Part shown: positions 3,795 to 34,760 of the stretch, piece by piece | Numbering within the stretch: position 1 is the first letter of the stretch | Layout: the number at the start of each line of letters is the position of its first letter | DNA from: Acidobacteriota bacterium | Lineage (GTDB): Bacteria; Actinomycetota; Acidimicrobiia; Spongiisociales; UBA5794 | Reading direction: 5' to 3' | Assembly: GCA_022562055.1 (NCBI GenBank) | Contig: JADFQA010000007.1 | Location: 3,680-67,679, forward strand | DNA length: 64,000 nt | Notes under the pieces: model-generated | The model's database searches: none | What the model was told of the DNA's origin: nothing | Seen by the model: the letters and a program-made list of their open reading frames with translations, nothing else | Translations under genes and position numbers: made by a program

Positions 3795-3823
3795 CCGGCC
3801 GACTCGACAACATTCCGCAATCG

Positions 3824-3857
3824 GTGTGAGGACTCTTCGGGGTCCTCACACTTTCTT
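3824..3857 (+). terminator. Rho-independent terminator after the orphan ABC ATPase
   Basis: Perfect 10-bp stem GTGTGAGGAC / GTCCTCACAC with 8-nt loop TCTTCGGG, followed by TTTCTT. Confidence 0.75.
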
Positions 3858-4096: not shown

Positions 4097-4657
4097 ATGT
4101 TGAAACGATGGACGGCCTTGTTTTTGTTGGCACTGGGGGGCGTCTACGCCGGTCACGCTGTCGGTTACACGCTTGTCGGCCAGATCCACCTCCACAGTAC
4201 CGAACTCGCTGACCTCCACAGCTACCTGCCAGGTGTGGCCAGGCTGGCAGTGCCTCTCGCGGCGTTGGCATTCGGTTGGCTCACACTATCCGGCTCTCGT
4301 AAATCACCAAGTGTCAATCCTGGCGTAGGCATCGGCAGCTTGCTGGCACTTCAGATCGGCGTCTACGGTGTGCAGGAAGTGCTTGAGCGTGTGGTCTCAG
4401 GTCGTGGGGTCGCCGGCATTTTGGCCGAGCCCGTTGTCTGGGGTGGCTTGGTCGCCCAAGTCCTTGTGGCGGTTGGCGTGCTTGCCGCCGTGCGCTTTCT
4501 CAAGCGGGTGGCGGTGGCGGCGCTGTTGTTCTTCATCCCCCAAGGGTTGCACGCGGGGGCGCCTGCTGAGTTCTTTAATCTCATTTCACGAGTCACTCCC
4601 CGGATTCGGCAACAAGCTGAGCCTCGTTCTTTGCGCGGGCCGCCGACGATTGCCTGA
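4097..4657 (+). CDS. Hypothetical multi-pass membrane protein
   Basis: In-frame ATG at 4097 (MLKRWTALFLLALGG...) followed by several hydrophobic helices. The upstream part of the track ORF is Arg-rich and non-protein-like. Confidence 0.45.
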   Translation: MLKRWTALFLLALGGVYAGHAVGYTLVGQIHLHSTELADLHSYLPGVARLAVPLAALAFGWLTLSGSRKSPSVNPGVGIGSLLALQIGVYGVQEVLERVVSGRGVAGILAEPVVWGGLVAQVLVAVGVLAAVRFLKRVAVAALLFFIPQGLHAGAPAEFFNLISRVTPRIRQQAEPRSLRGPPTIA

Positions 4658-4738
4658 CGGCCCGCGCGGCCGTCGATTCCACTTTCACTCCAAGATCGTC
4701 ACTCGGTCTTCATCGTTGCCCGCATTGAGGAGCCGCAC

Positions 4739-5199
4739 ATGTTCAAGAACACAAGAATCCAACTCGCCACAGGGGGGCTGCGTTGGTGTTGTCCGGCGTC
4801 GGCGCGTGTGGTGGAGGTGATGCCGACGTCGCAGTACCCACCGCATCGACTGTAACGGTCCTCGCGACCGGCGCCCCGACAGCGACCACGACTAGCGCCC
4901 CGACAGCGACCACGACGACCATCCCCATTGCGGCAGGTCCGGTGGAGTTCGTGGTGTCGGTGGAGGCTGGTTCTGTTGAAGGTGGTGGGAGGATCCCGGT
5001 TGAGATGGGTACCAAGGTGCGTCTGATCGTTTCGGCCGATGTCGCCGACGAAGTGCACCTCCACGCCTACGACATCTTCGTTGACGTGACACCGGGGACG
5101 CCGGCGGTCTTGGAGTTTGTGGCCGACATCCCAGGGATCTTCGAGGTCGAGTTGGAGTTGTCAGGTCTAGTGCTCATCGAATTGGTGGTGGAGCCGTGA
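4739..5199 (+). pseudogene. Secreted lipoprotein (Thr/Pro-rich linker plus beta-rich domain) with apparent frameshift in a G6 run inside the signal peptide
   Basis: ATG at 4739 in frame 2 encodes MFKNTRIQLATGG. After the G6 run at 4772-4777, frame 1 continues AALVLSGVGACGGG... One extra G would give a canonical lipoprotein signal MFKNTRIQLATGGAALVLSGVGAC with lipobox VGAC. The track start at 4783 leaves a signal peptide too short to function. Confidence 0.45.
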
Positions 5200-6540
5200 C
5201 ACACAAACAGCGCTTGGGGGTCTTTGGGGCGCTTGTCGCTGGCTTTGTCTTGACGCCCGACGTGGCTCTCGCTCATGGTATCGGCGGCCGCGGGGACCTG
5301 CCGGTTCCGCTGGAGTTCTTCCTGGTGGGGGCAGGTCTTGTTTTAGTGTTGTCCTTGTGATCCTGACGGTGTTATGGCCTGAACCTCGTCTCCAGGGCGG
5401 CCCGCTGGAGCGACCGCTAACCGCGTCGTGGGTTAGTTCGGTGGCTTCGTTGCTCGCTTTCGTCGGCCTTGCCGGGTTGGGGCTGGTGCTGGTCACGGGG
5501 ATCTTCGGCGGTGTGCGAGGTCGCAGCAACTTAGCCCCAGTGCTGGTCTGGGTCTATTTCTGGCTAGTGATTTCGTTTCTCAGTGCTTTAGTCGGGGACT
5601 TGTGGCAGTACATCAACCCGTGGCGCAGTATCAGCCGCATCGGCGGGTTTGGCAGGAGGGAACGCCCGGAGTTGGTTGAGAAACTTGGAATGTGGCCAGC
5701 GACAGTTGGGTTCGTGGCGTTCACCTGGCTGGAGTTGGTGTGGGCGGATCCGGCGAGGCCTCGAGTGGTTGCGGGGGCAGCCGTGATCTACACCCTCTAC
5801 TTGGTGTACTCCATGGTATGGGTCGGGCGTGAGACCGCGCTCGACGCCGGTGACGCCTTCACCTCCTACAACGCGTTGGTCGGAGCGATAGGCCCGGTGG
5901 GACACGACGTTGATCGAGGTCTGGTGTGGCGGGGTTGGCTGCGACAACTCCCGGCGCTGAGAGAGCGGCCCGGGCTGACCATGTTCGTCGTGGCCATGAT
6001 TGGTACCGTCAGCTACGACGGGCTTTCAAGCACGGCCTGGTGGGGAGTGCGGCAACTTCGCAGCTTTTCGGAACCCTGGCGCTATTTAGCTCGATTGCGG
6101 TGATCGGCGCCTGCTACTGGCTCGCCTCGTGGGCGGCAGCCCGACTGGCTCCGGGAGAGAGCCTGACGGCGACCGCAGTGGCGCGCAGCTTTGCCCATAC
6201 CCTGGTCCCCATCGCGTTCGCATATGCATTCGCTCACTATTTTACATTGGTGATCTTCGAGGGGCAGATCCTCTTTTCTGCGATCAGTGATCCGTTTGGT
6301 CGCGGATGGAATCTATTCGGAACGGCCACCTGGTCGGTGAACTTCTGGTTGTCGCCGAATTCCATCTGGTATATCCAGGTAGTCGCGATCGTCGGCGGCC
6401 ATTTGGCTGCGGTGATCCTCGCACACGATCGGTCCCTGGCCATTTTTCCCCGTGAGGACGCCGCCAAGTCACAATACGCCATGCTTGCTCTGATGGTCGC
6501 CCTCACTGTGTTCGGTTTGACGCTTCTGGGGACTGTCTGA
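5197..6540 (+). pseudogene. Polytopic membrane protein gene split across three reading-frame segments (two apparent frameshifts)
   Basis: Segment 5197-5360 in frame 1 (signal-like MTHKQRLGVFGALVAGFVLTPDVALAHGIGG...). Segment 5357-6103 is in frame 2, and segment about 6040-6540 returns to frame 1. The pieces join into continuous TM helices. Shift points lie next to a T4 run (5341-5344) and a G4 run (6043-6046). Confidence 0.45.
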
Positions 6541-6722
6541 TGCTGGCCTCGCTAATGCTGGCACATCAGAGCGGGTGGGACGATATTGCCTATTTCGTGG
6601 TGCCGACGGCTCTAGCGATTCTGGCACTCCGATGGTCCGCGAAACGAGCGACGCGACAGCGTACCCACGAACAAACGAACACGCCTGACGACAACGAAAT
6701 GACGAATCGGTCCCAAGAGTGA
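6540..6722 (+). CDS. Possible small membrane protein coupled to the upstream gene
   Basis: TGATG stop/start overlap at 6537-6542; 60 aa with one hydrophobic helix (IAYFVVPTALAILAL). Confidence 0.3.
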   Translation: MLASLMLAHQSGWDDIAYFVVPTALAILALRWSAKRATRQRTHEQTNTPDDNEMTNRSQE

Positions 6723-7020
6723 TATGCCCTGGCGCTGGGTACTTGCTATGCGCTGATGATGAGAGGCCGGTTATAGTCCGTTCACATTCCGCGTTCGTCT
6801 GTTGACACCACTGGCGAATCCGCGCGTCAGTGACGATCGTTGCGAAGTGCTGACGGATGGCGCCGGCGGCGTCTGACGGCTTTCGCCTAACTGTGTCGGT
6901 GTGAGCGATGTTCGTTGCGTCGCAGCAGGGTCAATAGAGTCAGCCACGATTCTTGTTGCATCTTCATGTGCAACGAGAGCTATCTGCTCGTAGCGCGGTA
7001 GCGCGAAGTCACGAACTGAG

Positions 7021-7803
7021 TCAGGGGGTGATGCGTCGAAACGCCTCGGCGCGTTTTAGGCCAGCCTCGACTCCGGACTGGCTCGCCCATTCAGAGATAC
7101 GGGCGCCGAACGCGTGTGCGTTGGATTCCTCCGTCACGTCTCCGCCCATCGTGGTTGCGCCTTGTGAAGTGTGACAGAGCAACGCACGCACCTTGGTATC
7201 GATGGTCGCCACGATGTCCTCCCAGTGGTTCGCTTCGTCCGCAGACCAAAGGAGGATTGCCTTCGGCCGGTGCGGAGCGAGGTTTTGGTCCTTGAAGAAC
7301 AGATGGTCGCGGGCCGCAACTACACCGTCGGTCGCACCAAAACCGGTCACACGGTGGTCGGGATGAAGCTGGTACCGTTGCCAAGGATCGTGGCTGAGGA
7401 CCACTTCAGGGGTGTGGACCCGAATCTGTTCACAGATCTGGCCCCGCAGTTCCATTGAATATTCAAGTTCACCGTCGACGTACCCAAGCTGTACGGTCTC
7501 TCTAGCTCCGAGAACCTCCGCGGCGGCGCGTAGCTCGTCGCCTCGCGTCGCTACGAGCTCATCTTGATCTTGCTCGGTATCCCAGGCGCCCTTCGAACCG
7601 TCGGTCACAATTAGCATCACAACGCGGCATCCTGCTGCTGCCCATTTCGCAAGAGTTCCTCCGGCGCCGAACTCGATGTCGTCTGGGTGCGCACCGATCG
7701 CAAGCGCAGATGCGGGGGTCGGCAGGTCGACGGCGTCTGTTTGCGAGATTTGTGTTGGCGCCATGGCCAAGAGCCTATCTGATACAGCGATTGTCTGACG
7801 CAT
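7021..7803 (-). CDS. PIG-L/LmbE family N-acetylglucosaminyl deacetylase
   Basis: AHPDDIEFGAGGT zinc-binding motif and HPDH motif typical of LmbE-like deacetylases; 260 aa. Confidence 0.8.
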   Translation of the reverse strand: MRQTIAVSDRLLAMAPTQISQTDAVDLPTPASALAIGAHPDDIEFGAGGTLAKWAAAGCRVVMLIVTDGSKGAWDTEQDQDELVATRGDELRAAAEVLGARETVQLGYVDGELEYSMELRGQICEQIRVHTPEVVLSHDPWQRYQLHPDHRVTGFGATDGVVAARDHLFFKDQNLAPHRPKAILLWSADEANHWEDIVATIDTKVRALLCHTSQGATTMGGDVTEESNAHAFGARISEWASQSGVEAGLKRAEAFRRITP

Positions 7804-7806
7804 GGC

Positions 7807-8430
7807 CTAGCGGATGACGGTCTCGATCCATATGCCGTTGCGGTGGCGACGCACCGCCTCCAGGTCGATCGTGGAATCAAGGTCGATGGTGAGATTTGGT
7901 GATACGAGGACGGTAGCGAGCGGGATCTGGCGCCTATGAAGCGAGAACGAACCCAAACCATATTTGAAGTGGATGGCTTCCCGGGCGAAACCATGGACCC
8001 CGCCGAGAATGTTGGTGCCGCCGTCCCGTGAGGGCACGATAACTCCGTGCTCCGTTGCCGTGAATGCGTCTAGGCAGACGCGGGCATCGGCAGGCCGGAT
8101 CAGCGGAAGATCTGCATGGACCGCAAGCCAGCGACAACCGGCCGCGGACGCGGCAGCGCAACCAGCAGCGATGGCACCGTTGAGACCGGGTCCGAACACG
8201 TCGGGCTGTTCGGGAATGACCACACACCCGAGATGAGTCGCCCAGACCTGCACATCGCGGTCGGCGGTGACGACGACGACGTGGGCGCCCGCAGATGTAA
8301 ACGCGGCGATCGTTTTCGATGCTACCGCTTTCCCGAGGCGGCTCCGTTGGTCACTGTCGAGCACCGCGGCGAGACGTTGCTTCGCTACGCCGAAAGCTTT
8401 CACCGGCACGATCACCCACGCTTTGTTCAC
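7807..8430 (-). CDS. cofC: 2-phospho-L-lactate guanylyltransferase (F420 biosynthesis CofC/FbiD family)
   Basis: N-terminal AWVIVPVKAFGVAKQRL, central HADLPL and SRDGGTN motifs of the CofC/MobA-like family. Its start overlaps the upstream VOC gene stop by 4 nt. Confidence 0.7.
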   Translation of the reverse strand: MNKAWVIVPVKAFGVAKQRLAAVLDSDQRSRLGKAVASKTIAAFTSAGAHVVVVTADRDVQVWATHLGCVVIPEQPDVFGPGLNGAIAAGCAAASAAGCRWLAVHADLPLIRPADARVCLDAFTATEHGVIVPSRDGGTNILGGVHGFAREAIHFKYGLGSFSLHRRQIPLATVLVSPNLTIDLDSTIDLEAVRRHRNGIWIETVIR

Positions 8431-8927
8431 TGCAGGGAGAGATAGTGTTCGAAACTCAGCGACGTTTCGGTACCGTCACCGACGCCGTCTTGCCACTGTG
8501 CAAACTGGATGACGATCCCGTGTGTCGACGAAGGATGGAAGAACGTCTCGCGCCAGTCGGCGTGGTCTGTGTTGGTGCTGGCTACCACGAGACCAGCACC
8601 TACCGCAGATTCGGTGGCCGCCTCCAGGTCGAACACCTTGAACGTTATGTGGTGGAAACCCTCGCCGCGCCGTCGCAGAAACCGGTTGAGAAAGTTGTTC
8701 GCGTCGTTTGGGTTAATCGGCTCGATCATCTCGAGCTGGCCTCGCATCGGAAGATCCCATTTGGCATATTTGAACCCCGCGTCGCGCTCGATTCCTCCGC
8801 CCTTCCAGATGCCACCCATAACTTCCGCTATGAACCCCGAGTCCTCCACCGAGTGGACTCCCATCGCGATGTGGTCGAAACGCTCAATGTGGGCTTGCAG
8901 TGCGTTAGGGAACTCAATGTTGATCAT
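8427..8927 (-). CDS. VOC (glyoxalase/bleomycin-resistance/dioxygenase) family protein
   Basis: 166 aa. Paired beta-alpha-beta-beta-beta modules with HIAMGV...HHITFKV metal-binding-like residues. Confidence 0.7.
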   Translation of the reverse strand: MINIEFPNALQAHIERFDHIAMGVHSVEDSGFIAEVMGGIWKGGGIERDAGFKYAKWDLPMRGQLEMIEPINPNDANNFLNRFLRRRGEGFHHITFKVFDLEAATESAVGAGLVVASTNTDHADWRETFFHPSSTHGIVIQFAQWQDGVGDGTETSLSFEHYLSLQ

Positions 8928-9073
8928 AAGGTGATCCTACCGATAGTACGTCTTGATCGGACACCGGGCGACCGGCGCTTCCGAGTGGTGATGTCAAGTG
9001 TCATTCGCCTACTCTGCGGGTTGCTTTGGTGCCCGCTCCGATGGGCACGTTGAGATTAGGGAGTGAAGTGACA

Positions 9074-9832
9074 ATGAAAACTACGACCAGATTGGTTGCG
9101 TTCATCGCTGTTCTTGCGGTCGTCGTGGCCGCATGTGGAAGCGACGGTGCATCTACGATCGCCGACGGCAAACTGACGATTTGTTCGGAAATACCGTACG
9201 AGCCGTTCGAAATGGACGACGGCAGCGGCGGTTACACCGGGTTCGATATCGAACTGGCTGAGGCCATCGCTGGCGAGATGGGTCTTGACCTTGCGGTGAT
9301 CAACACCGGGTTTGATGGGATCCTTCTTGAGGTCGCATCGGGAGGATGTGACATGGTGGCCTCTGCAATGACGATCACGGCCGAAAGGGCTGAGAACGCT
9401 TCGTTCTCAGATTCGTACTTCAGTGCCGACCAGTCACTGCTCGTGCTGGCCGAGATGGGCACACCGAAACTTTCTGAGTTCGGCGGCAAGAAGATCGGCG
9501 TTCAGAGCAGCACCACCGGTGAGGCGTACGCCAAGGAGAACGCACCGGCTGACACGGAGATCGTCTCGTTCGAGTCTGGTGAGGACCTGTTCCTGGCCCT
9601 GACGTCAAACGCTGTCGACGCAATCCTCCAGGATCTGCCCGTCAACGGCTACCGGGCGCAAACGGATTCAGCCTTCTCGCTTGCGGACACATTCACGACT
9701 GATGAGCAGTACGGGTTCGCAATGGCGAAAGGCAGTGACCTCGTTGCCGAGGTAAACAAGGCACTCAAGACGTTGCGTGACAACGGCACGTACGGTGACC
9801 TACACGAGAAGTACTTCGGTACGCGAGGGTAA
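9074..9832 (+). CDS. Polar amino-acid ABC transporter substrate-binding lipoprotein (GlnH/ArtJ-like, family 3 SBP)
   Basis: Signal peptide with lipobox LAVVVAACGS. SBP_bac_3-like sequence (GFDIELAEAIAGEMG, TITAERAE). AGGGAG RBS before ATG at 9074. Confidence 0.85.
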   Translation: MKTTTRLVAFIAVLAVVVAACGSDGASTIADGKLTICSEIPYEPFEMDDGSGGYTGFDIELAEAIAGEMGLDLAVINTGFDGILLEVASGGCDMVASAMTITAERAENASFSDSYFSADQSLLVLAEMGTPKLSEFGGKKIGVQSSTTGEAYAKENAPADTEIVSFESGEDLFLALTSNAVDAILQDLPVNGYRAQTDSAFSLADTFTTDEQYGFAMAKGSDLVAEVNKALKTLRDNGTYGDLHEKYFGTRG

Positions 9833-9899
9833 AACTACATACCAGTACCTGATGGGGGACCTTCGGGTCTCCCATCTCGTTCAGTTGAGGGAGTAGCAA

Positions 9900-10700
9900 G
9901 TGGCTAGCTGGGCATCGTTGTCGAGGCGGCGGCGGACAATTGTCTTGCGTCGCATTGCATACAGCGTATCGCTTGTCATCGTCGTAGTTGTCGGATTCGT
10001 GATCGACTGGGTCAGCCTGTCGGATTCGATGATCAGGCCGTCGATCATCGTGGATCAGTTCCCCAGAATTGTGACTGTTGCCGCACGGAACACGCTGATT
10101 TTTACGTTCTTTGGTTTCGTTGGCGGTCTGATGATCGGTCTGGTTGTCGCCCTTGGGAGGATTTCGCAGGCGAGACCGTTCCGGATAGCAAGCGGTGTGT
10201 TTGTCGACGTCATTCGTGGAATCCCTTTGCTTGTGTGGATATTGATCATCGGTTTTGGGATTCCGATCGCGACCGGGGTTCGTATTCCCGGCGCATACGG
10301 AGCGGGTTCGTTGGCTCTTGCGATTGTCGCAGGTGGCTACATGGCAGAAACGATCCGGTCAGGGATCGAGGCGGTCCCGCGCGGTCAGATGGAGGCTGCG
10401 CGTTCGGTCGGGATGACCTACACCCGCGCAATGTGGACGATAGTTCTGCCGCAGGCGTTTCGAATCATCATTCCTCCCCTCACGAACGAACTTGTCTTGT
10501 TGATCAAGGACACGTCGCTGGTATCCGTGCTCGGCGTGACCGCCGGCACCATCGAACTCACCAAGTTTGGCCGATCGGCATCCGCTACGGCGTTCAATGC
10601 GACTCCGCTGATAACGGCCGCGCTCGTGTACCTCGCCATCACTCTGCCGATGATTCGAGTTGTCGCGATCCTTGAGAAAAAGGCGGCGGCGTCACGATGA
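9900..10700 (+). CDS. Amino-acid ABC transporter permease (His/Glu/Gln/Arg/opine family)
   Basis: Multi-TM protein with the EAA-like loop motif of polar amino-acid permeases; ends 4 nt into the next gene. Confidence 0.85.
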
Positions 10701-11443
10701 GCAAAGTTGTTGGTACCCCGGTCATTGAGGTGCAAAACCTCCACAAATACTTTGGTGACTTGGAGGTGCTCAAGGGGATCGATTTCGTGGTTCGCTCCGG
10801 TGAAGTCGTGTGCATCATCGGGCCCTCAGGATCGGGAAAATCGACTTTGCTTCGGTGTATCAACCGTCTTGAAGAGGCGACGTCGGGCAATATTCTCATT
10901 GAGGGCGAGGACATCACCGACATCGACGCCGATGTTGATGCGCTTCGAACCAAGATCGGGATGGTGTTCCAACGGTTCAACTTGTTTCCACACCTCACGG
11001 TTGTCGAGAACCTCACCGTTGCTCAGGTCAAGGTGTTAAAGCGATCAAAACAGGACGCCCTTGAGATCGCCAACGCCAACCTGGAGCGTGTTGGCCTCAT
11101 GGAGAAGGCCAGCGATTTTCCGCGGACCCTGTCGGGAGGACAGCAGCAACGCGTCGCTATCGCAAGGGCGCTGTCGATGGAGCCAGAGATGATGTTGTTC
11201 GACGAAGTTACCAGCGCTCTCGATCCAGAACTCGTCGGCGAGGTGCTTACGGTCATGCGAACCCTTGCGGAGGAGGGGATGACGATGATGGTCGTGACCC
11301 ATGAGATGGATTTTGCTCGTGGCGTTGCAGATCGGGTCGTGTTCATGGACGCTGGCGTCGTGTGTGAGGAGGGTCCGCCTGGCGATATCCTCGTGAGTCC
11401 ACAGACCGAGCGTCTCCAGCAGTTCTTGCGAGTGATCAGTTAG
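10697..11443 (+). CDS. Amino-acid ABC transporter ATP-binding protein (GlnQ-like)
   Basis: Walker [25 protein letters not shown], Walker [13 protein letters not shown]; 248 aa. Confidence 0.9.
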
Positions 11444-11445
11444 CG

Positions 11446-14400
11446 CTACATGTTGCGTCGGTACTGACCGCCGACGTTGTACAGCGCAGCGGAAATCTGT
11501 CCGAGTGAGCACACTTTTGTGGTCTCAAGCAACGACTCAAACACGTTGCTGCCGTGCAGCGCCGTCTCTTGAAGCTCAGCTAGTGCAGTGACGGAACTCG
11601 CTGCGTTGTGTGCGTGATAGTCGGCAAGCTGACTAATAAGTCGGTCCTTGTCCTCATCGGTCGACCGAATGATTTCTCCCGGCACCACAAACGGGCTGCC
11701 CGAATCTGATAGAAAGGTGTTGACTCCGATGATGGGGAACTCGCCCGACTCTTTGAGTTGCTCGTAGTACATCGATTCTTCTTGAATCTTGGTGCGCTGA
11801 TATTGGCTTTCCATCGCACCCAAAACGCCACCGCGTGCGGTCAAGTTATCAAACTCAGCCAGCACCGCTTCCTCGACGAGGTCTGTAAGGTCGTCGATGA
11901 TGAACGAGCCTTGGAGCGGGTTTTCGTTCATGGTCAAACCCAGCTCGCGGTTCACGATGAGTTGAATCGCAAGCGCTCGGCGCACGGATTCGACGGTCGG
12001 AGTCGTAATGGCCTCGTTGTAGGCGTTGGTGTGTAGCGAGTTGCAGTTGTCGTAGATCGCGTACAGGGCCTGGAGCGTGGTGCGGATGTCGTTGAAGTCA
12101 ATGTCCTGCGCATGCAAGGATCGCCCCGACGTCTGGATGTGGTATTTAAGTTTCTGTGACCGCTCGTTGCCGCCGTACTTCAGCTTGATCGCCTTGGCCC
12201 AAATGCGACGGGCAACACGTCCAATCACGGCATACTCGGGGTCGACGCCGTTTGAGAAGAAGAAGCTGAGATTCGGTGCGAAGTCGTCGATGTCGAGTCC
12301 GCGCGACAGGTAGTACTCGACAAACGTAAACCCGTTCGCCAGCGTGAAGGCAAGTTGTGAGATGGGGTTCGCACCCGCTTCGGCCATGTGATAACCAGAG
12401 ATCGAAACCGAGTAGAAATTTCGGATGTTGTTGGCAATGAAGTACTCCTGCACATCACCCATCATCCGCAGCGCAAACTCTGTCGAGAATATGCACGTGT
12501 TCTGCGCCTGATCCTCTTTGAGTATGTCGGCTTGCACCGTCCCGCGCACAGCAGCCAACGTATCTGACTTGATCTGTTCGTACACTTCCGCAGGCAGCAC
12601 CAAGTCTCCGGTCACGCCGAGAAGAAGAAGCCCCAGCCCGTCGCTTCCTTCCGGGAGGTCTCCCGAGTACGTTGGTGCGACTGTGCTGTGTAGATCGGCG
12701 ATCTTGCGCCGCGTTTCATCCACCAGGTCGTGCTGGGTGATGTAGCGCTCGCATTGCTGGTCGATCGCGGCATTGAGGTAGAACCCAAGAAGTATCGGCG
12801 CCGGACCATTGATCGTCATCGACACCGATGTTGATGGGTCGACGAGGTCGAAACCGCTGTAGAGCCGCTTCATGTCATCGAGGGTGGCGATCGACACACC
12901 AGAGTTGCCAACCTTGCCGTACACATCAGGGCGGGATTCGGGGTTCTGTCCGTACAGTGTCACAGAGTCGAATGCTGTGGAGAGCCGCTTTGCCGGCACA
13001 CCGAGTGACAAATAGTGGAAGCGGCGGTTGGTCTGCTCGGCGCTTCCTTCGCCGGCAAACATGCGTGTCGGATCTTCATCCTGCCGCTTGAATGGGAACA
13101 CCCCGGCCGCAAACGGGAATGCACCGGGGACGTTCTCATGGAGCAGCCACCGTAAACGGTCGCCGTGGCTCGAGAACCGAGGCAGAGACACTTTGGGGAT
13201 CCTGGTATGTGCGAGAGATTCTCCCGCGAGAGTCGCGGATATCTTGCGATCTCGCACGAGGTAGGTCAGCTCGGTGCCGGTGTAGGACCGCACAAGGTCC
13301 TCCCAACCCTCGAGCATGGCGGCGTTTTTTGGATCGAGTTCGGCGGTGAGCGCTGCTTGGACGGTGTCAAGCGCACTCTGGGCCGCCTCGTCTGAGACTT
13401 CGGTTAGCGCGACCTCAAGGCCCTGAATGCGGTCGGCTAACGTCGCCTGCTCGTCGACCCTTAGGCCGTACCCTCGGATTACCTCAGTGATTTCTGAGAG
13501 ATAGCGGACGCGCTCCGCAGGTACCACGGCGGCCCCCTGTGGAGGGGCTTCCACGAGCGGGCTCTCGATGTCGAACGAAGCGTTGGCCGCCCGACCGACA
13601 AGCTGCATCAGTTTCTCGAAAACCGTGTTCACCCCGGCGTCATTGAACTGGCTCGCAACCGTTGCATACACCGGGATCTCGTCGTCGGATTGTTCGAACA
13701 TCACGCGACTGCGCCGGTACTGCTTGCGAACATCTCTCACGGCGTCGAGTGCCCCGCGTTTGTCCGCCTTGTTGATGACGATGACGTCGGCGAAGTCGAT
13801 CATGTCGATCTTCTCAAGCTGGCTGGCGGCACCATATTCGGGTGTCATCACATACAGAGTGACGTCTGCGTGATCAACGATTTCGGTGTCCGACTGACCG
13901 ATCCCTGAGGTTTCGAGGATCACCAGATCGTATCCGGCCGCTTTGACAATGTTGATTGCGTCGTGGACGTGACGCGGCAGCGCAAGATTTGCCTGCCGTG
14001 TGGCGAGGGACCGCATGTAGCAGCGCTCATCACTGATGGCGTTCATACGAATGCGGTCCCCGAGCAAAGCCCCCCCGGTACGCCGTTTCGAGGGGTCGAC
14101 ACACAGCACCGCGACTGTTTTCTTGACATACGCAGATAGGAATCGACGGACGATTTCGTCGACCAGCGACGACTTGCCGGCGCCCCCTGTGCCGGTGATG
14201 CCAAGGACCGGTACTCCTGACTGCTCAGCCAGGCTCTCTATCACGGTGGACATGCCGACGAAATTGCTCGGAAGATTCTCCGCAATACTTATGACACGAG
14301 CGGTGATCGTCGGATTCGCCGTCGACAGGGGAGTGTCAGCAACGGAGTCGACCGATGGGCGTGCGACCTTGCGTGCCGCGGCGATCATGTCATCAACCAT

Positions 14401-15496: not shown

Positions 15497-16933
15497 ATGG
15501 AGCGCAAGACAAAAATTATCGCAACACTCGGACCAGCAGTTGCAAGTTTCGAGGGGATCTGCGGTCTCATCGAAGCCGGCATGAACGTCGCCCGGCTCAA
15601 CTTCTCGCACGGCACTCACGAATCACATGCACAGATGATCGAGTGGGTGCACGGCGCCGCGGACAAACTTGAACGGCCGATCGCGATTCTCCAAGATATT
15701 CAGGGTCCTCGGATCCGCGTTGGGTCCTTTGCTGGTGGAGAGATTGAGTTGTCAGACGGTGACATCATCCATCTCGAGCCGGGGACGGACTCCATGGATG
15801 GCTCGACGATCTTTGTTGAGAACCTCCAGCACGTCACCCTCTCAGCCGGGTCACCAATTCTATTGGCGGACGGTCTCATCGGCCTCGAGGTCACCGGTGT
15901 CGATGGCACTCGGGTGACCGCTCGCGTTGTCGAGGGGGGCACGGTCAAGGACCACAAGGGGGTTGCATTCCCTGGCTCGGCAATGACGCTTCCTGCCGTC
16001 ACCGGGAAAGACGAGGCCGATCTTGCTTTCGGCCAAGAGCAGGAAGTCGACTATGTGGCGGTGTCGTTTGTGTCCTCGGGCAGCGACATTCGCGACGTCC
16101 GTCGCATCATTGGGTCCGACACGCCGATAATCGCAAAGATCGAAAGCACGATCGGTTACAAGAATCTCGACGACATACTCGATGAGGCATACGGCGCGAT
16201 GGTCGCTCGTGGCGACCTAGGTGTGGAGCTTTCGTTCGAATCGGTGCCTCGCGCTCAGAAGGACATTCTTACGAGAGCCAATGCTCGCGCTCGCCTGACG
16301 ATCACCGCGACCGAAATGCTTGAGTCGATGACCCACTCATCCCGGCCAACTCGCGCCGAAGTCACGGACGTGTTTGGTGCGGTGCTCGACGGTTCGGATG
16401 CCGTCATGCTTTCGGGGGAAACTGCCGTTGGCAAATACCCACAGCGCACGGTTGCCGCCATGGACCGGATCTGCCGTGAAGCTGAGCAGAGTTCACGTTA
16501 TGGCCAGACGGTCCCGGTCGAGTTCACCTCTGACGATGCGCGGTTCGCAGTTGCGACGTCGCAAGCATGTGTCGAGGCAGCCGACTCGCTCGGCCTTCGG
16601 GCAATCGTGGCGTTTACCGAATCGGGCAGCACGGCTCGTCTGATCTCGAAGTATCGACCAAAGGCCGACATCTATGCATACACACCAACGACACGGACAT
16701 ATCGACGAATGGCGTTGTACTCAGGGGTGCGTCCGGGTGTGTTCAGACGGGTGGATTCGACCGACGAGATGATTCTGTACGCAGAGCACCAGCTACTCGA
16801 GGAGGGCATCGTGAAAAAGGGCGATGGTGTTGTGATGGCGGCCGGCATCCCTCCAAACCAGGCGGCGTCGACGAACCTCATGAAACTGCACTCGATAGGC
16901 TCCACGATCGTCGGCGTTCCCACGGGCGATTAG
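15497..16933 (+). CDS. pyk: Pyruvate kinase
   Basis: MERKTKIIATLGPA start, NFSHG, MVARGDLGVE, and the rest of the pyruvate kinase barrel and C-terminal domain; 478 aa. Confidence 0.9.
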   Translation: MERKTKIIATLGPAVASFEGICGLIEAGMNVARLNFSHGTHESHAQMIEWVHGAADKLERPIAILQDIQGPRIRVGSFAGGEIELSDGDIIHLEPGTDSMDGSTIFVENLQHVTLSAGSPILLADGLIGLEVTGVDGTRVTARVVEGGTVKDHKGVAFPGSAMTLPAVTGKDEADLAFGQEQEVDYVAVSFVSSGSDIRDVRRIIGSDTPIIAKIESTIGYKNLDDILDEAYGAMVARGDLGVELSFESVPRAQKDILTRANARARLTITATEMLESMTHSSRPTRAEVTDVFGAVLDGSDAVMLSGETAVGKYPQRTVAAMDRICREAEQSSRYGQTVPVEFTSDDARFAVATSQACVEAADSLGLRAIVAFTESGSTARLISKYRPKADIYAYTPTTRTYRRMALYSGVRPGVFRRVDSTDEMILYAEHQLLEEGIVKKGDGVVMAAGIPPNQAASTNLMKLHSIGSTIVGVPTGD

Positions 16934-17281: not shown

Positions 17282-17644
17282 CGTCGCCAGCCATCCGCGG
17301 CTCTCGCAAATATCCCACACTGGTCTCCGCAACTCCGGGGAGGGCCGCTGCATATCTGGCTGGATACGCCTCGCGGGATCGACGCGGACTCACTGCGAGA
17401 CGCGGTGCTTCGACAGGGTGTAGCGATCGTGGCGGGCAGACAATGGCACCCGAGTGACGCCCCCAGCTCGTTCATCCGGTTGAGCTACGCTGCCGTTACC
17501 ACACCTCTTGTCGAGGAGGGTGCGTACCCACTCGCACGAGCGATAGGGCCGGAGATTTGTCCTTGTCGTTCGGTGTTGGTCTATGTTTCGGGCGGGGTGT
17601 ATTCGCCTAGGCGGACGGTGATTGTGGCCCCACCATCGAGGTAG
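17282..17644 (+). pseudogene. C-terminal remnant of a PLP-dependent (class I/II, MocR-like) aminotransferase with no start codon or N-terminal domain
   Basis: The frame opens immediately after the stop of the preceding gene and reads ...GGPLHIWLDTPRGIDADSLRDAVLRQGVAIVAGRQWHPSDAPSSFIRLSYAAVTTPLVEEGAYPLARAI. This is typical of an aminotransferase C-terminus. No ATG appears until 17405, and the 3' end overlaps the convergent VanW gene. Confidence 0.5.
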
Positions 17645-19632
17645 CTGCCGCCAGCGGCGCTCTGGGTCTGCACGATGCCATTCTGTTCGGCGCTTGTAAC
17701 CACGATCGGGTCACCGACCGCAACTCCAAAGCCGGCCGCCGCAAACGTGGCCTGAGCGTTGGCGAATTCCATGCCGACAACCGACGGCACCAGCAGTGGA
17801 CAATCCTCTTCGCTGTCTGGCATGTTGCACGGATGTACCTCGATAATTTTCGTCCGGGGACGGTACGTCGCGGTGTCTTTTTCTTCAGTGACCGTACCGT
17901 CGGGAGCCGTGATAATGCGTGTGATCGTCACCGACCATCCGCCGAGGCCATTGCGCTTGATATGTTCTTCGCCGGGGGCGAGCGAGGCGTCGGGCTCGTA
18001 CTCGGTTTTCGGTTCAGTGAATGCGAATCGCCCCGACCTCTCGGCCTCGCATGTGACGCCGCCGGTGTTGCCATAGAACTGCACGGTGATCGAGGTCGAC
18101 GTGTACTGGGTCTTGATGATGAGGGCCGTCTCGGTGTTGTTACGCAGAATGAGATTCGGCGCCGGCCAAGAAATCGTCGCTTCACGGCCCTCGGGATAGC
18201 GCGAGAAATAGATCGAATGCGGAACATGTCTGATGTCCTCGTAACAACCGAAAAAGATCGCGTTGTAGAACGTAGTTGCGAACTGGCTGACGCCGCCGCC
18301 AATAACCTGTACTAGTTCACCACCCAAGATCATGCCGTCCGACAAGTAGCCCTTTTCAACAGTTCGTTCGCCGACTGCTACGTTGAGCGAATACTCTTCT
18401 CCGGGAAGGACGATGTTTCCGTCGACCGCCTCGGCGAAAAGCTGAATGTTGATAACGCGATTCTGCCCTGCCGGATGGTTGGTGGTGAACTCGCTCACCA
18501 GACCGACTTCGTCCATGGCTTCGGCATCTGCCGTTGTGAACGAAGCCGCCTCCCCTTCGGCAAATGGGAACTCGCCGATCCGCACGCCGGAAGACGCGGT
18601 GGCGAAAATGGCTTCAGCAACGAGGTCGATGTCGAGCGACGTCGATGGACGCGACGGGACGAGTACGACCGGGAATCCCTCGCCTTCGCCGACCTCGGCC
18701 TCCTCGTCGATGGTCCACTCAGCATCGCGAGCCTCCGAGCGCGCAGTCTCACGCAGTGGTTCGATGACGTTGACGAGTTTGTCTCTGTCAAATCCGAGGA
18801 CGATCCGCGGAGTTCCCAAAGTCACCACGTTCGATACGAATGCGTTGATGAGTTGCTGCGAGGTGATGACAAGCTCGATTTCGGGCTGCTCGGAACGGAG
18901 GGTGATTGGCCCGCCGATGAGCAAGTTCGCTTCGCTCACGGCCTTGTCAATATCGTTTCTGGTTAGTGAAGGCTGCACCTCAATTGTTGGAAGCCATGCG
19001 GTGTTTGTGCTTGGGTTCGTGAGGACGTTGGTGAGAATCGCTAATGCGGGGACACGGTCGATTCCCTCACCCGACACCGGGTACTCCGCCTTGGCGAATC
19101 CGCCAGCCATCACTACCGCCCCCTCGTATGCCGGGATGGAGATGGCGTCTTGCTGCCATTGGTCGATCTGTTGATCCAGAAGTACAGGATCGATGGTCAC
19201 CGCAACGTCAATCGTCCGAGTGTCGCCAAACGACGAAAACCAACCCAGTACTTGACCAATCAGACCGGACTCACGTCGTTGTAACAGTGCCTCTTCAACT
19301 ACTTCATCAGTGTTGAGGACGAGGTCGACCGACTTTGGGTCAAGCTGGAACGTAGTGTCCTTGACGGTAATCAAGGCCGGCTCGTCGCGTAGAGCAGCCT
19401 CGTACTCAAGAACAGCAACTGTTGCATCCTCTGGACCGAATCCGCCTACCTCGATTCCCGCAATTGTGACATTGCGAGCGATTTCCCCGTTGCGCGACGA
19501 TATGTCGGCCACGATCACCAGTAAGGGGAACAGCACAACTACGACGAGTAGGTATTTCAGGTTGTTTCGTAATTTCGCGATTACGCGTGCAGCCCCTGCC
19601 GGTGTCGGTGGAAATCGGCGCTCACTCACCAT
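17581..19632 (-). CDS. VanW family protein with N-terminal TM anchor and C-terminal PASTA domain
   Basis: TM LKYLLVVVVLFPLLVIV. VanW core motifs (PGEEYSLNVAVGERTVEKGY, GGGVSQFATTFYNA). C-terminal about 70 aa matching PASTA (VPSVVGMEFANAQATFAAAGFGVAVGDPIVV...). Confidence 0.75.
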   Translation of the reverse strand: MVSERRFPPTPAGAARVIAKLRNNLKYLLVVVVLFPLLVIVADISSRNGEIARNVTIAGIEVGGFGPEDATVAVLEYEAALRDEPALITVKDTTFQLDPKSVDLVLNTDEVVEEALLQRRESGLIGQVLGWFSSFGDTRTIDVAVTIDPVLLDQQIDQWQQDAISIPAYEGAVVMAGGFAKAEYPVSGEGIDRVPALAILTNVLTNPSTNTAWLPTIEVQPSLTRNDIDKAVSEANLLIGGPITLRSEQPEIELVITSQQLINAFVSNVVTLGTPRIVLGFDRDKLVNVIEPLRETARSEARDAEWTIDEEAEVGEGEGFPVVLVPSRPSTSLDIDLVAEAIFATASSGVRIGEFPFAEGEAASFTTADAEAMDEVGLVSEFTTNHPAGQNRVINIQLFAEAVDGNIVLPGEEYSLNVAVGERTVEKGYLSDGMILGGELVQVIGGGVSQFATTFYNAIFFGCYEDIRHVPHSIYFSRYPEGREATISWPAPNLILRNNTETALIIKTQYTSTSITVQFYGNTGGVTCEAERSGRFAFTEPKTEYEPDASLAPGEEHIKRNGLGGWSVTITRIITAPDGTVTEEKDTATYRPRTKIIEVHPCNMPDSEEDCPLLVPSVVGMEFANAQATFAAAGFGVAVGDPIVVTSAEQNGIVQTQSAAGGSYLDGGATITVRLGEYTPPET

Positions 19633-21565: not shown

Positions 21566-23056
21566 ATGGAGATCGAATCGGGGGCCAACAACAGCATCAA
21601 AGCGGAGCTCGGTTTCCTCGCTGCACCGCTTGAAGGTGTCGGCATCCACCCGGATGTCGAACGGAGGCGCAGGTCCGCGGTCGGTGAATACATGATGCGC
21701 CGCCATGCGGCCCACCGCCAAGTCCCTCTCGTGGTTGTTGTCGGACTCACCGGAACAGGTGTCTCGACGGTCGTCAACGCGTTGTGCGGCGCGGATGTCG
21801 CCACCACAGGAGTGCTCAGGCCGACCACGACCAGTCCGCTCATCGTTGTGACGGCAGACAATCTCGATGCTCCGGTCACAGGACTCGCTGTTGCGATGGA
21901 CGGTGCGCCACGGGTCGTCGAGATGGCTTCCGTTCCGTTCACCATCATCGACGCACCGGCGTGGGAGATGGGTGTCGGCGGCGAGGTCTCCGCTCGGCTT
22001 CTGCCCCTTGCTGATGTCGTTGTGTGTGTCACGACACCTGAGCGGTACGCAGATGCCGGAGTGTGGCGGCTCATCGAGGCCGCCAGAGACGCTGGGGTGG
22101 CAGTCGTCGTAGTGATGAACATGCCGACCGACGGTCCGCTCGACGACCTGAAGGGTCGCATGGCCCTGAGGTACGGTGCGCTTGCACCACCGGTCGTTGC
22201 TGGAATCGCATCTGATGATCTCGTGGCTGCGATTACGGTGGCCGCTTCTTCGCACCGCGTTCACAGCATCGATGGTGCGCGGTCGAGGTTGCGGGAAGTG
22301 CTCAAGACAATGGAGCCGATCATTGAGGAGTCCGCGGCCCTTCTTGAGACCGCCAGGGTCATCTACGCCGACCATTCACGGGCTTTGGCGGATCGGCTAA
22401 AGGCCGGCGAATTTGTCCCTGCAGCTGAGTCGCAGACGCTGACTGATGCGTCGTTCTCGCTCGCATCAGTCATCACTAGCCGCATCGGCGCCGCTGCCGA
22501 GCAGACGGCGACGGCGTGGGCCGCGACGAAGTTGGGAGAAGCCGCGCTCGTGTCCGAAACTGTTGGATTGTGGCGCCATGGACCCGCCGTTTCCGCGTTG
22601 TCGCAGCGGCATGTGGCTGAGACCATCGGCGACATACGGATGGTTGTCCGTGACATGACGAAGTGGCGTCGGCCCTCTGAGCGAAAGCTGTCGCTGGCGT
22701 CAGACTATCTGTGGAGGGCTGCTCTGGGACGCGACGTTGCCAACTGGACAATGAAGCGCGGTTTCGGAAAGCGCCGCGCCAGAGCCGTGGATAGGGTCCG
22801 GAGTTTGTTCTCCGAGGCGGTAACGCAAGTCTTTAGTGCGGACCGGCAGCGTTTTATCGACCGCTTGCATCACATTCCGACGGCCGCCCGGCTTTGGTCA
22901 CTGCACGAATCATTCGAGGACCGTCCAGACGTGGTTCGGGACCGTGGCGAATCTGAGTCTTCGATCAGCATCGATCTGGCAGACGGTTCCGACATCTTGG
23001 TCGACGAACACGGGACCACTCCGGATTCCGTGCATGCGAAGGGTGCTGATGCGTGA
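21566..23056 (+). CDS. P-loop GTPase-family protein with degenerate G1 and G4 motifs (likely pseudo-GTPase), first gene of a coupled pair
   Basis: G-domain architecture, but Walker A reads GLTGTGVST (Lys replaced by Val) and G4 reads NMPTD instead of NKxD. Long helical C-terminal region; 496 aa. Confidence 0.7.
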   Translation: MEIESGANNSIKAELGFLAAPLEGVGIHPDVERRRRSAVGEYMMRRHAAHRQVPLVVVVGLTGTGVSTVVNALCGADVATTGVLRPTTTSPLIVVTADNLDAPVTGLAVAMDGAPRVVEMASVPFTIIDAPAWEMGVGGEVSARLLPLADVVVCVTTPERYADAGVWRLIEAARDAGVAVVVVMNMPTDGPLDDLKGRMALRYGALAPPVVAGIASDDLVAAITVAASSHRVHSIDGARSRLREVLKTMEPIIEESAALLETARVIYADHSRALADRLKAGEFVPAAESQTLTDASFSLASVITSRIGAAAEQTATAWAATKLGEAALVSETVGLWRHGPAVSALSQRHVAETIGDIRMVVRDMTKWRRPSERKLSLASDYLWRAALGRDVANWTMKRGFGKRRARAVDRVRSLFSEAVTQVFSADRQRFIDRLHHIPTAARLWSLHESFEDRPDVVRDRGESESSISIDLADGSDILVDEHGTTPDSVHAKGADA

Positions 23057-24227
23057 CGTTGATCAACTAATCGATGCCCTTGATAGGGTGGTCGTTACGG
23101 CCCCCGGATTCGTCGACGAAGGTCTCGCCATTGCGGCGGATTCGGCTGCTTTGCAACTCCGGCGCCGGACCGGCTACCTAGGTGAAACCCTTGTCCTTGC
23201 GATTGTCGGTGGTACTGGGGCGGGAAAGTCGAGCCTGCTAAATGCGATTGCTGGGGAGCCAATCGCCTCGGTGAGCGACATTCGCCCGCACACCCACGAG
23301 CCGCTCGCATGGATACCCGAATCCGCGGGTGGTGGACTCACCGCACTCCTCGACGATCTCGAGGTGCATGTCCGTAGACCACAGAACCTATTTGATTCTC
23401 TGTGCATCATTGATCTTCCAGACTTTGACTCGTACGCCGAGGCGCACCGTGAGGTGGTCGAGCGGTTGCTGCCGCTGGTGGACGTCGTTGCGTGGCTGGT
23501 CGACCCGGTCAAGTACGCGGATCCGTCCCTGCATAGTGACTTCCTCAAACCGGTCCATCAACACGGCGCACAGTTTGTGTTTGTCATGAACAAGATGGAT
23601 CTGCTTTCCCCCGAGAGCCGCGTGGCGGTCGTTGACGACTTTGTCCGTCTGCTCGGTGAAGATGGCTTCGAGGAGACGTCCGTCATAGCTATTGCGGCCT
23701 CGCCGACCGAGGGAGAGCCGTTCGGTATCGATGAGTTGACGGCTCACCTTCGTCTCCGGCTGACTGACAAGCGTCTCGCTCTGAACAAACTCGTGCACGA
23801 GGTGCGGGATCTCGTTCGCCGAATCGGGATCGATGCAAGTGTGTGGAACGGGTTTGGTGAGTCTTTCGATGAGCGGTGGCGGGTTACCCGAGACAAGGTA
23901 GCGACCGGGCTTGCCGAACCCGTCGGCTCGCCGGAGCGGGAGGATGCGGCTTGTCGGTTGTCGGACTTTGTTGCGGCGTTAGCGCAGTCTGCAGGCGACC
24001 ACGCAGCCGAGGTACGAAAGGCGGTGCCGCACACGGTCATCGATCAAGCGGTCAAAGATGTTGCTGCCAACGCCATGACCACAAGTCTGACCGCGCGGAG
24101 AGACCATCTCGACGCGAAGATCGGAAGCCCGCTCCGCGATTGGGCGCATCGTCGGGCTGTGTTCGGCGCTACTGTCGCATTCGCGGGCGTGAGTGCATAT
24201 GCAGTGGAGGACAGATTGTGGCGTTGA
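23049..24227 (+). CDS. Canonical P-loop GTPase (dynamin/HSR1-like) with hydrophobic C-terminal segment, second gene of the coupled pair
   Basis: ATGCGTGA start/stop overlap with the upstream gene. Walker A GGTGAGKSSLLNAI, G3 IIDLPD, G4 VMNKMD. C-terminal AVFGATVAFAGVSAYAV is hydrophobic. Confidence 0.7.
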   Translation: MRDVDQLIDALDRVVVTAPGFVDEGLAIAADSAALQLRRRTGYLGETLVLAIVGGTGAGKSSLLNAIAGEPIASVSDIRPHTHEPLAWIPESAGGGLTALLDDLEVHVRRPQNLFDSLCIIDLPDFDSYAEAHREVVERLLPLVDVVAWLVDPVKYADPSLHSDFLKPVHQHGAQFVFVMNKMDLLSPESRVAVVDDFVRLLGEDGFEETSVIAIAASPTEGEPFGIDELTAHLRLRLTDKRLALNKLVHEVRDLVRRIGIDASVWNGFGESFDERWRVTRDKVATGLAEPVGSPEREDAACRLSDFVAALAQSAGDHAAEVRKAVPHTVIDQAVKDVAANAMTTSLTARRDHLDAKIGSPLRDWAHRRAVFGATVAFAGVSAYAVEDRLWR

Positions 24228-33608: not shown

Positions 33609-34760
33609 GTGAGGCAACGGGGTTGGACGATGGTTGCAACCTTTGCGGCTCTGTCTCTTGCGACTGCCTCCTGCGGCACCGTGGAGCCTGCGATCGCCGG
33701 AGCCGCCCCGCGTGGAGTACCGTCGACCTTGCCGCCGCCGACAACGACAACAACGCAGGACCCGGCGCTCACCGCGACCGAGGGTTACATCCGCATACCC
33801 CCCGGCGGTGCGGATCTCTACAACAGCGCAAACGGATCTGTGGTGCAGAGCATTGCTGAGGGCTTGACACTTGGATTCGTTTCCCGATCAGGCGAATGGC
33901 TCGAAGTCATTACCACCTGTGGGACGACAGCGTTTGTGACCGACACCCAAGTTGTGTTGTTCCCACGGGCCGCCATTTCCACAGGGACTGATTTATCGAA
34001 ACTGGTGATCGTCATCGACCCAGGTCATGGCGACAGGGATTGGGGTGGTGTTGGGCCCACCGGTCTGTCTGAAAAGAGCGTGAACCTCGACATCTCGGCC
34101 CGCCTCGCGTCTCTCCTCGAAACGCCGCATGACATTGACTTCACCACCGGAGAAGTGACCGTTGGAACGACCTACCCAGCCGTGCACGCTGCGTTGCTCA
34201 CACGATCTGCCGATGGGCCCAATGATGGAGACTACGAACTTGGCCTTGCGCACCGCGCCGGACTGGCCAACGCCGCAGGAGCCGCCGCCTTGATTTCGAT
34301 TCACAACAACACCGTACCCCTGAAAAAGACCGACAAGCCGGGTACCGAGGTGTACTACTCACTGGCCGCGGAGGACTCCGATCGGCTTGCGGGACTCGTG
34401 TATGACGAACTCGTCAAGTCAGTGGCCTCATTCACCGCTGAGTGGACCGGTGGAATCTCGCTCGGCGCCAGAGCGAGGCGAGACCCCGACACCGGCAGCG
34501 ACTATTACGGACTCCTCCGGCGGGCGACAATGCCGGCGGTGATCGTCGAAGGTATCTACATTTCAGAGCCGGAGGAAGAGGCACTGCTCAAGACGGATGA
34601 GTTCCGACAGGCCTACGCCGTCGCGGTGTATCGCGGCATCGTTCGATTCTTCACGACGAGCGACACGAGCACAAGCATTCAAGAGCCTGAACCGTTTCCC
34701 GACGATGCGGGCAAGTTGTCGAATCGGGCATGCCAAGTCCCCACACAGCCGGCGAGTTGA
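33609..34760 (+). CDS. N-acetylmuramoyl-L-alanine amidase (Amidase_3) lipoprotein with N-terminal SH3-like domain
   Basis: Lipobox LSLATASCG; VIVIDPGHGDRDWG, ISIHNN and EGIYISEPEEE amidase_3 motifs. Confidence 0.8.
   Translation: MRQRGWTMVATFAALSLATASCGTVEPAIAGAAPRGVPSTLPPPTTTTTQDPALTATEGYIRIPPGGADLYNSANGSVVQSIAEGLTLGFVSRSGEWLEVITTCGTTAFVTDTQVVLFPRAAISTGTDLSKLVIVIDPGHGDRDWGGVGPTGLSEKSVNLDISARLASLLETPHDIDFTTGEVTVGTTYPAVHAALLTRSADGPNDGDYELGLAHRAGLANAAGAAALISIHNNTVPLKKTDKPGTEVYYSLAAEDSDRLAGLVYDELVKSVASFTAEWTGGISLGARARRDPDTGSDYYGLLRRATMPAVIVEGIYISEPEEEALLKTDEFRQAYAVAVYRGIVRFFTTSDTSTSIQEPEPFPDDAGKLSNRACQVPTQPAS

Follow-up and report, generated by a model that had tools for sequence, protein, structure and literature searches.

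The window, by which we mean the whole stretch of 64,000 nucleotides analysed here, carries on its forward strand a gene for a lipoprotein that is followed directly by a gene for a larger membrane protein. Both reading frames are broken. The pair is flanked by an intact gene for a hypothetical membrane protein and by a short intact ORF, and a hairpin downstream of an ABC-ATPase gene probably marks where the transcription unit is bounded on its 5′ side. The features are collected in Table 1.

Table 1. Features of the lipoprotein locus (positions in the window).
Feature	Position	Strand	Remarks
Terminator-like hairpin after the upstream ABC-ATPase gene	3823..3852	+	13-bp stem, 7 GC pairs, then T-rich tail
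186-residue hypothetical membrane protein, intact	4097..4657	+	syntenic upstream neighbour; 64% identity to the gene upstream of the L005 ortholog
Shine–Dalgarno sequence GAGGAG	4727..4732	+	six bases 5′ of ATG 4739; position kept in L001, L030 and L031
Lipoprotein, N-terminal 11 codons (MFKNTRIQLAT)	4739..4771	+	frame 2; matches ortholog N-termini in alignment
G6 homopolymer, frameshift site	4772..4777	+	one G short of the in-frame G7 allele
Signal-peptide remainder (AALVLSGVGAC)	4777..4809	+	frame 1; A23 and C24 nearly invariant among homologs
Thr/Ala/Pro-rich low-complexity linker, residues 25–68	4810..4941	+	pLDDT 52–70, without secondary structure
Predicted cupredoxin-fold domain, residues 69–153, and stop codon	4942..5199	+	AlphaFold pLDDT > 95, nine strands
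Membrane-protein pseudogene, fragment 1 (54 residues)	5196..5360	+	tblastn with intact 452-residue orthologs changes frame here
Membrane-protein pseudogene, fragment 2	5357..6103	+	frame 2; 79% identity to ortholog residues 45–283; nonsense past the second lesion
Junction of the 13-nt deletion (lesion C)	6040..6047	+	between direct repeats GTGGGG(C/A)G; relative to L028
Membrane-protein pseudogene, fragment 3	6046..6540	+	frame 1; 81% identity to ortholog residues 288–451
60-residue ORF, intact	6540..6722	+	conserved last gene of the cluster; syntenic 61-residue ORF in L002–L004

The split lipoprotein gene and its neighbourhood

No single unbroken ORF in the window runs through the start codon, the signal peptide and the mature domain of the lipoprotein. 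Frame 2, read from the ATG at 4739–4741, encodes MFKNTRIQLATGGLRWCC... and stops at 4853–4855; its product is MFKNTRIQLATGG followed by nonsense, 38 residues in all (ORF 4739–4855). The break falls in a GGGGGG run that is bordered by A and C. Frame 1, read from 4777, encodes the remainder of the signal peptide, continues GGGDADV and so into a mature part of 129 residues, and stops at 5197–5199. The lipobox V-G-A-C occupies 4798–4809, with the codon of the cysteine predicted to be lipidated (Cys24) at 4807–4809. Direct reading of the sequence thus agrees in full with the initial annotation, which had placed the start codon, the G6 run and the two frames at these positions. One added G yields a protein of 153 residues, with Cys24 and with K3 and R6 in the n-region, that satisfies a PS51257-type lipobox pattern, which we take to be a positively charged n-region, a hydrophobic h-region and a lipobox Cys at position 15–35. 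The ORF that starts at TTG 4783 fails the same pattern, having no n-region and its Cys at position 9.

A sequence search with the repaired protein gave 604 homologs, and those that carry a taxonomic label are all Acidimicrobiia. Orthologs at 43–98% identity align over the junction from Met1 onwards (MFKNTKIRLA..LG.A.L....GAC); of 110 homologs, at least 90% keep Cys24, and of 17, at least 90% keep A23 together with C24. Since the orthologs align across the junction and Cys24 is conserved, the stretches on either side of the G6 run are both genuine coding sequence and not a chance arrangement. Intactness of the orthologs had been proposed as a check, and intact proteins were indeed found: 153 residues long at 98–100% identity, and 157–186 residues long in sister lineages. 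The run is in itself neither rare nor enriched in the window. GGGGGG matches are depleted (12 observed, 36 ± 7 expected from shuffles) and the longest G/C run is 7.

Model and fold comparisons point to an extracytoplasmic, lipid-anchored protein with a cupredoxin-like domain. The linker that follows the lipobox gives spurious 'New_glue' and mucin Pfam matches in homologs. For the domain of residues 69–153, Foldseek returned a probability of 1.0 to CuA domains, to Brucella FtrB (8vuk) and to the B. anthracis Cupredoxin_1 protein (4hci), with E about 1e-5 and TM values of 0.76–0.79 normalised to these small targets (TMt 0.79 for FtrB 8vuk); a profile search against the PDB also found CuA domains (E = 5e-4). 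Throughout the family D101, H107, H109, E138 and E140 do not vary. The lipoprotein reaches no Pfam or NCBIfam family at threshold, and its score with Pfam COX2 (14.6 bits) lies below the gathering score of 22. Like the CuA domains of cytochrome oxidase subunit II and N2O reductase, the domain is a single β-sandwich of ∼ 85 residues, but it lacks their Cys ligands: the mature domain contains no Cys, and Cys24 is the only one in the protein. The β-sandwich is likewise common to FtrB and Cupredoxin_1, from which the lipoprotein is set apart by staying below the Pfam gathering thresholds. In FtrABCD-type iron uptake FtrB stands beside an FTR1 permease, whereas the neighbour here is an unclassified membrane protein of ∼ 450 residues that gave no Pfam, NCBIfam or PDB sequence match and no fold match, and is not of the FTR1 family. 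The lipoprotein may have a metal-binding accessory role, and the pair would then presumably handle a metal.

The genes on both sides of the pair are undamaged. The 186-residue product has no Pfam or NCBIfam match, and its gene carries two synonymous and no non-synonymous SNPs among the contigs compared; the 60-residue protein has a weak DUF6203 match and is identical on 11 contigs. Five other groups of overlapping ORFs in the window (19.7–61.7 kb) proved by Pfam to be complete separate genes. These five intact groups, together with the constancy of all other homopolymers reported below, rule out genome-wide frameshifts from poor assembly, which we had considered.

Several further features of the surroundings were noted. 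Three pairs of tandem paralogs in the window appear intact: two dynamin-like GTPases (21566–24227, + strand), two Amidase_3 proteins (33609–36037, + strand) and two AdnA/AdnB-like UvrD-helicase/PD-(D/E)XK nuclease proteins of 1084 and 1026 residues (55544–61671, − strand). SNP density reaches 47 sites/kb at 15497–16933 (pyruvate kinase, where the changes are almost all synonymous, 63:4) and 22 at 17581–19632 (a VanW/PASTA protein), against 0–15 elsewhere in the compared region; the most divergent contig over these two genes is L035 (99.0% identity overall), and the stretch could have recombined between strains or diverged. Outside the left end of the window, past a NIT/HAMP histidine kinase gene, one contig (L032:545–1810, ZHOU22) carries an ISL3-family transposase gene and a TacA-like antitoxin gene. 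The NCBI MAG protein MCH7668246.1, annotated as a 138-residue hypothetical protein of 'Acidobacteria bacterium', equals window ORF 4783–5199 exactly and is possibly derived from the window's own source. The 'Acidobacteria bacterium' label is likely to be a taxonomic or binning error, because the labelled homologs of the gene pair all belong to the Acidimicrobiia (Actinomycetota).

Tract length among conspecific assemblies

Conspecific contigs were recovered by exact-protein look-ups and share 98.8–100% DNA identity with the window. Nine assemblies, the window included, span the tract, and their counts are to be read with the caveat that overlapping raw data may lie behind some of them. Four carry the out-of-frame G6 allele [the window, L022 (ERZ27267408), L025 (CHEN21 S002) and L034 (ZHOU22 SAMN16252661)], two the in-frame G7 allele [L030 (Logan SRR12886643) and L031 (CHEN21 S003)], one an out-of-frame G8 allele [L033 (LIUR22)], and two an in-frame allele in which a T precedes G6, so that residue 12 is Trp [T+G6; L001 (ERZ27267425) and L032 (ZHOU22 SAMN16252660)]. 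The protein encoded by the G7 allele is the one predicted by repair; a single extra G had been proposed to restore the lipoprotein, and that protein occurs residue for residue in a separate assembly (P0127 in L030). The T+G6 protein (P0001) is 98% identical to it, and both fit the lipoprotein pattern (AALVLSGV[GS]AC, Cys24, K3/R6). A comparison of run length in related strains, which the initial annotation had called for, therefore gives 6, 7 or 8 Gs within one species. From L001 alone we had supposed that the missing base was a T beside an unchanged G6, without slippage; the G7 and G8 alleles superseded this.

Homopolymers were then compared over fifteen contigs (95 kb of pairwise alignment, window 1–21443). 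Indels occur only at the G tract and at the 13-nt site in the neighbouring gene, and no other homopolymer of 6–7 nt differs in length between assemblies. The control tracts that stayed invariant are C7 at 14070 (4 contigs), which sits in an intact IcmF-like gene, G6 at 4135 (6 contigs), T6 at 13325 (5 contigs) and G6 at 15934 (2 contigs). From this set of alleles and the constancy of the controls we conclude that the frameshifted G6 allele is real and segregating, and that the tract has slipped at least twice. An exact-pattern scan for the tract alleles gave no match in JGI metagenome contigs, a scan of genome contigs brought up distant relatives from the Acidimicrobiia only, an exact look-up of the 138-residue ORF found no contig encoding it, and a literature search on the sample accessions returned no papers.

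A sequencing or assembly artefact, in which the organism truly carries G7 (or T+G6) and G6 was miscalled, is hard to reconcile with these data, and we regard it as very unlikely. It draws on run SRR12886643, whose Logan assembly gives G7 (L030), and of which another contig (L024/L037) is 99.96–100% identical to the window over 6414–13352. However, five SNPs separate L030 from the window, so that it represents a different haplotype. G6 is moreover found in three assemblies of differently named samples (ERZ27267408, ERZ23486734 and ERZ23499143) that show no further indel relative to the window over 3.5–20.7 kb, and the length constancy of all other 6–7-nt homopolymers argues against miscalling in general. 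MCH7668246.1 agrees with the truncated ORF as well, with the proviso on its origin given above. The initial annotation had offered three readings of the run, and of these the homopolymer sequencing error finds little room, whereas a recent inactivating frameshift is supported by the recurrence of G6 in L022, L025 and L034 and by the intact orthologs.

The G6 allele might still be functional if the frameshift were bypassed during expression. Homopolymers are shift-prone in general, and six identical bases would permit perfect P-site re-pairing of tRNA-Gly on GGG GGG after a −1 ribosomal shift, the product being the G7 protein; transcriptional slippage could have the same effect. Such a site is not conserved, however: the frame is plainly unbroken in outgroups and in the T+G6 and G7 alleles. 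The G8 alleles, for their part, would require the opposite shift. The relaxed-selection spectrum of the gene and its dead partner, both described below, speak against it too. Of all the explanations considered, bypass seems to us the least credible.

Contigs of differing tract length also carry SNP differences. In-frame (ON) and out-of-frame (OFF) alleles are found under the same BioSample label (G6 in CHEN21 S002, G7 in CHEN21 S003), and since SNPs separate them, the ON and OFF contigs would appear to be different strains and not switched clones.

Probable decay of the gene pair

In the relatives L002–L005 the membrane protein is encoded by one 452-residue ORF, which shares 4 nt with the end of the lipoprotein gene, stop codon included; of 15 GTDB Acidimicrobiia loci, 12 have the two genes side by side. 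More than 4358 homologs were found; the listed members have ∼ 450 residues, and aligned members average 58% column identity. This membrane-protein family is large and well conserved. Neither Pfam nor NCBIfam has an entry for it, and PDB fold searches with a confident model (pTM 0.86) gave no meaningful match. In the window the gene is split over three frames (5196–5360, 5357–6103 and 6046–6540) by two lesions.

Lesion B is a deletion of 1 nt between about 5336 and 5357, probably TTT to TT at 5355–5356. It occurs in every conspecific contig that spans the site: the DNA is identical in eight of them (L001, L022, L025, L026, L030, L031, L033 and L034), and L032 likewise carries the 54-residue ORF. 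We considered the resulting 54/248-residue split as a true gene boundary, given its GTGA overlap and its presence in all conspecific contigs, and rejected it because the orthologs elsewhere are single 452-residue ORFs and the family has ∼ 450 residues. Lesion C is a loss of 13 nt in the window, L022, L025, L026 and L027; L030, L031 and L034 show no gap relative to the window at this site. Only L028 is without it and keeps GTGGGGCGACCTC joined to GTGGGGCG there. L025 has an additional Trp-to-stop change at 6120. L032 and L028 come from one sample; between them they have lesion B and an undamaged T+G6 lipoprotein gene but not lesion C, and lesion B therefore preceded lesion C. The frameshift in the lipoprotein gene is polymorphic and seems to have come last. 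In 4 of the 9 assemblies the lipoprotein ORF is intact although the partner gene is broken.

Two observations on the membrane-protein gene stand apart from this order. At 5230 a C-to-G change (Ala to Gly; L026 and L033) turns TTTGGGGCGC into TTTGGGGGGC and creates a new G6 run within the pseudogene, a second case of substitutions making homopolymers in the decaying operon. In another lineage (L006:5507–6867, on a 1.9-Mb contig) a CG insertion changes GTCGCC to GTCGCGCC and splits the 452-residue ortholog into 125 and 340 residues; L005:5507–6865, which is 99.96% identical to L006, is intact, and the insertion reflects either a separate inactivating event in this gene or a fault of assembly.

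For the SNP spectrum, each variable site in 15 contigs was counted once, as a synonymous or a non-synonymous one, and the counts were set against those of 18 other genes by a Fisher test. These 18 genes have 122 synonymous and 30 non-synonymous sites. The membrane pseudogene has 6 and 9 (p = 0.0015), and the lipoprotein gene, a small sample, 1 and 6 (p = 0.00056), with changes that include ones beside conserved residues (G83E, I131S). The lipoprotein gene, its in-frame alleles included, thus evolves like the adjacent pseudogene, under relaxed selection. The 1:6 ratio fits neutrality, and diversifying selection on a surface protein could also produce it.

The tract itself appears to be young. 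Outgroups L002, L005 and L006 read TTG GGG GCC (Leu-Gly, G5), so the run is not kept in related lineages; the species studied here reads TGG GGG GCT (Trp; L001 and L032) or GGG GGG GCT (Gly). Because the outgroups have only G5, the tract was probably built recently, by changes of codon 12 from Leu to Trp to Gly in the hydrophobic core of the signal peptide. We infer that slippage then went from G7 to G6. The other order, in which T+G6 lost its T to give G6 and G6 gained a G to give G7, is also conceivable because the haplotypes reticulate: SNPs 4735 and 4988 show all four gametes. We had taken the presence of G6 and G7 on both 4988 backgrounds as a proof of recurrent slippage by the four-gamete test, and abandoned it; the plain SNPs 4735 and 4988 behave in the same way, and recombination or a chimeric metagenome consensus accounts for the pattern.

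Taken together, the frame is disrupted relative to orthologs, the lesion is reproducible, selection is relaxed and a linked gene is inactivated, as in gene decay. We consider it likely that the G6 allele arose when a G7 tract of recent origin slipped, with neutral effect, in an operon whose function was already gone. The partner, a translationally coupled polytopic membrane protein of 452 residues, would have been broken first, by the 1-nt and then the 13-nt deletion. Codon 12 would have changed from TTG (Leu) to TGG (Trp) to GGG (Gly), extending the run from G5 to G6 to G7, and replication slippage in G7 would have given two out-of-frame alleles in separate events, G6 (in the window) and G8. 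A ribosome that starts at ATG 4739 would then reach a stop after 38 residues and make no lipoprotein with a signal peptide. The lipoprotein presumably depends on its partner, and its loss would be tolerated because the operon function had gone beforehand. On this account the tract would be a hot spot of neutral mutation within a gene pair in decay, and not a regulatory switch. The window is best explained as carrying a naturally occurring null allele of a lipid-anchored, cupredoxin-domain lipoprotein in an uncultured Acidimicrobiia bacterium. Some observations sit less easily with decay: a tract of 6, 7 or 8 Gs at the 5′ end of a surface-lipoprotein ORF, with ON and OFF alleles under the same BioSample label, has the look of a contingency locus, and the four intact lipoprotein ORFs beside a broken partner might reflect a role independent of that partner.

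Decay, switching and known systems

Those observations would find an explanation in adaptive phase variation, in which the tract reversibly switches a surface cupredoxin lipoprotein ON (G7) and OFF (G6, G8) and so creates heterogeneity in the population. In its favour, strains that are nearly identical have 6, 7 or 8 Gs, the tract belongs to the 5′ end of the ORF, where the signal peptide of a surface lipoprotein is encoded, ON and OFF alleles were recovered from assemblies of the same BioSample or project label, and the C7 tract elsewhere in the window, of the same length, is constant. There is also precedent in the Actinomycetota, in M. tuberculosis complex tracts of at least 7 nt such as that of glpK (PMC10334774; see also bioRxiv 10.1101/717272). 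However, the tract is short and young and co-exists with a non-tract allele that is in frame (T+G6, Trp), the conserved partner is inactive in every conspecific contig that covers it, and the mature domain gathers non-synonymous changes (G83E, I131S) as the neighbouring pseudogene does. G/C runs are depleted in the window, with none longer than 7 and no sign of a phasome, and SNPs separate the ON from the OFF contigs. Selection for a functional ON product finds no support, the SNP spectrum being neutral-like and the partner dead in all conspecific contigs that span it. The length at which tracts are treated as phase-variable (at least 7 nt; PMC10334774) is just reached by the in-frame G7 allele, the window having G6. 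The polymorphism itself is what a neutral tract mutating 100–1000 times faster than point substitution would be expected to show at ∼ 0.3% nucleotide diversity. We therefore regard adaptive phase variation as unlikely. The initial annotation had suggested a slipped-strand, phase-variable tract; its slippage mechanism is upheld by the G6, G7 and G8 alleles, its adaptive switching is not. Neither the pseudogene state of the partner nor the relaxed SNP spectrum of the lipoprotein gene had been noticed there.

A variant of the same idea would be a newborn contingency locus, in which the change from Leu to Trp to Gly made a G7 run that now switches a lipoprotein whose role is independent of the dead partner. 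If true, the de novo origin of phase variation would have been seen directly in metagenomes. We consider this unlikely, slightly more so than adaptive phase variation as such.

Returning to neutral decay as the preferred reading, its first consequence is for annotation: the locus is better described as a frameshifted pseudogene beside a second pseudogene than, as in the existing annotations, as a 137/138-residue 'hypothetical protein' and three small ORFs. It offers a small, clean case of gene decay caught underway in wild populations, with a readable order of lesions in the partner. Substitutions permitted by relaxed constraint would have built a slippage-prone tract, which became the next point of failure. 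It follows that tract-length polymorphism, the usual in-silico criterion for phase variation, can by itself appear by neutral change in a gene that has become dispensable.

Poly-G/C contingency tracts of Campylobacter, Neisseria and Haemophilus are typically at least 8 nt long, kept as tracts from strain to strain, numerous in each genome and located in functional genes. The locus described here resembles them in that a mononucleotide run of G lies close to where the ORF of a surface protein begins and sets ON and OFF by its length. It differs in that the tract reaches 8 at most, is absent from sister lineages and lies in a window in which G runs are depleted.

A closer parallel in phylogenetic terms is the M. 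tuberculosis complex, where slipped-strand mispairing is described as 100–1000 times faster than point mutation, tracts of at least 7 nt count as phase-variable, and the frameshift rate measured for a 7G tract is 3.1e-8 per generation (PMC10334774). Extreme homoplasy is a feature of those tracts that were proposed to be adaptive, and the 7C tract of glpK is reversible with a phenotype (PMC10334774). Like glpK 7C, the tract studied here is a 7-nt G/C run within an ORF of an actinomycetote, slips by ± 1 base, and has in-frame and out-of-frame alleles that co-exist. Unlike the M. tuberculosis complex tracts, it is a recent by-product of codon substitutions, its partner is a pseudogene and its SNP spectrum looks neutral.

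Mycobacterium leprae, by contrast with these switching systems, is rich in pseudogenes and shows stepwise operon decay through frameshifts and microhomology deletions. The likeness lies in several independent small lesions within one functional unit (deletions of 1 nt and, between direct repeats of 8 nt, of 13 nt, the nonsense codon of a single strain, and the frameshift in the homopolymer), in intact flanking genes and in a raised non-synonymous share. No other gene carries an indel in the 21 kb covered by conspecific contigs, where there is no sign of genome-wide reduction. In distinction to M. leprae, the decay seen here is still polymorphic in wild populations and apparently confined to one operon; we conclude that the locus is probably a case of ordinary pseudogenisation, a further instance of a known process.
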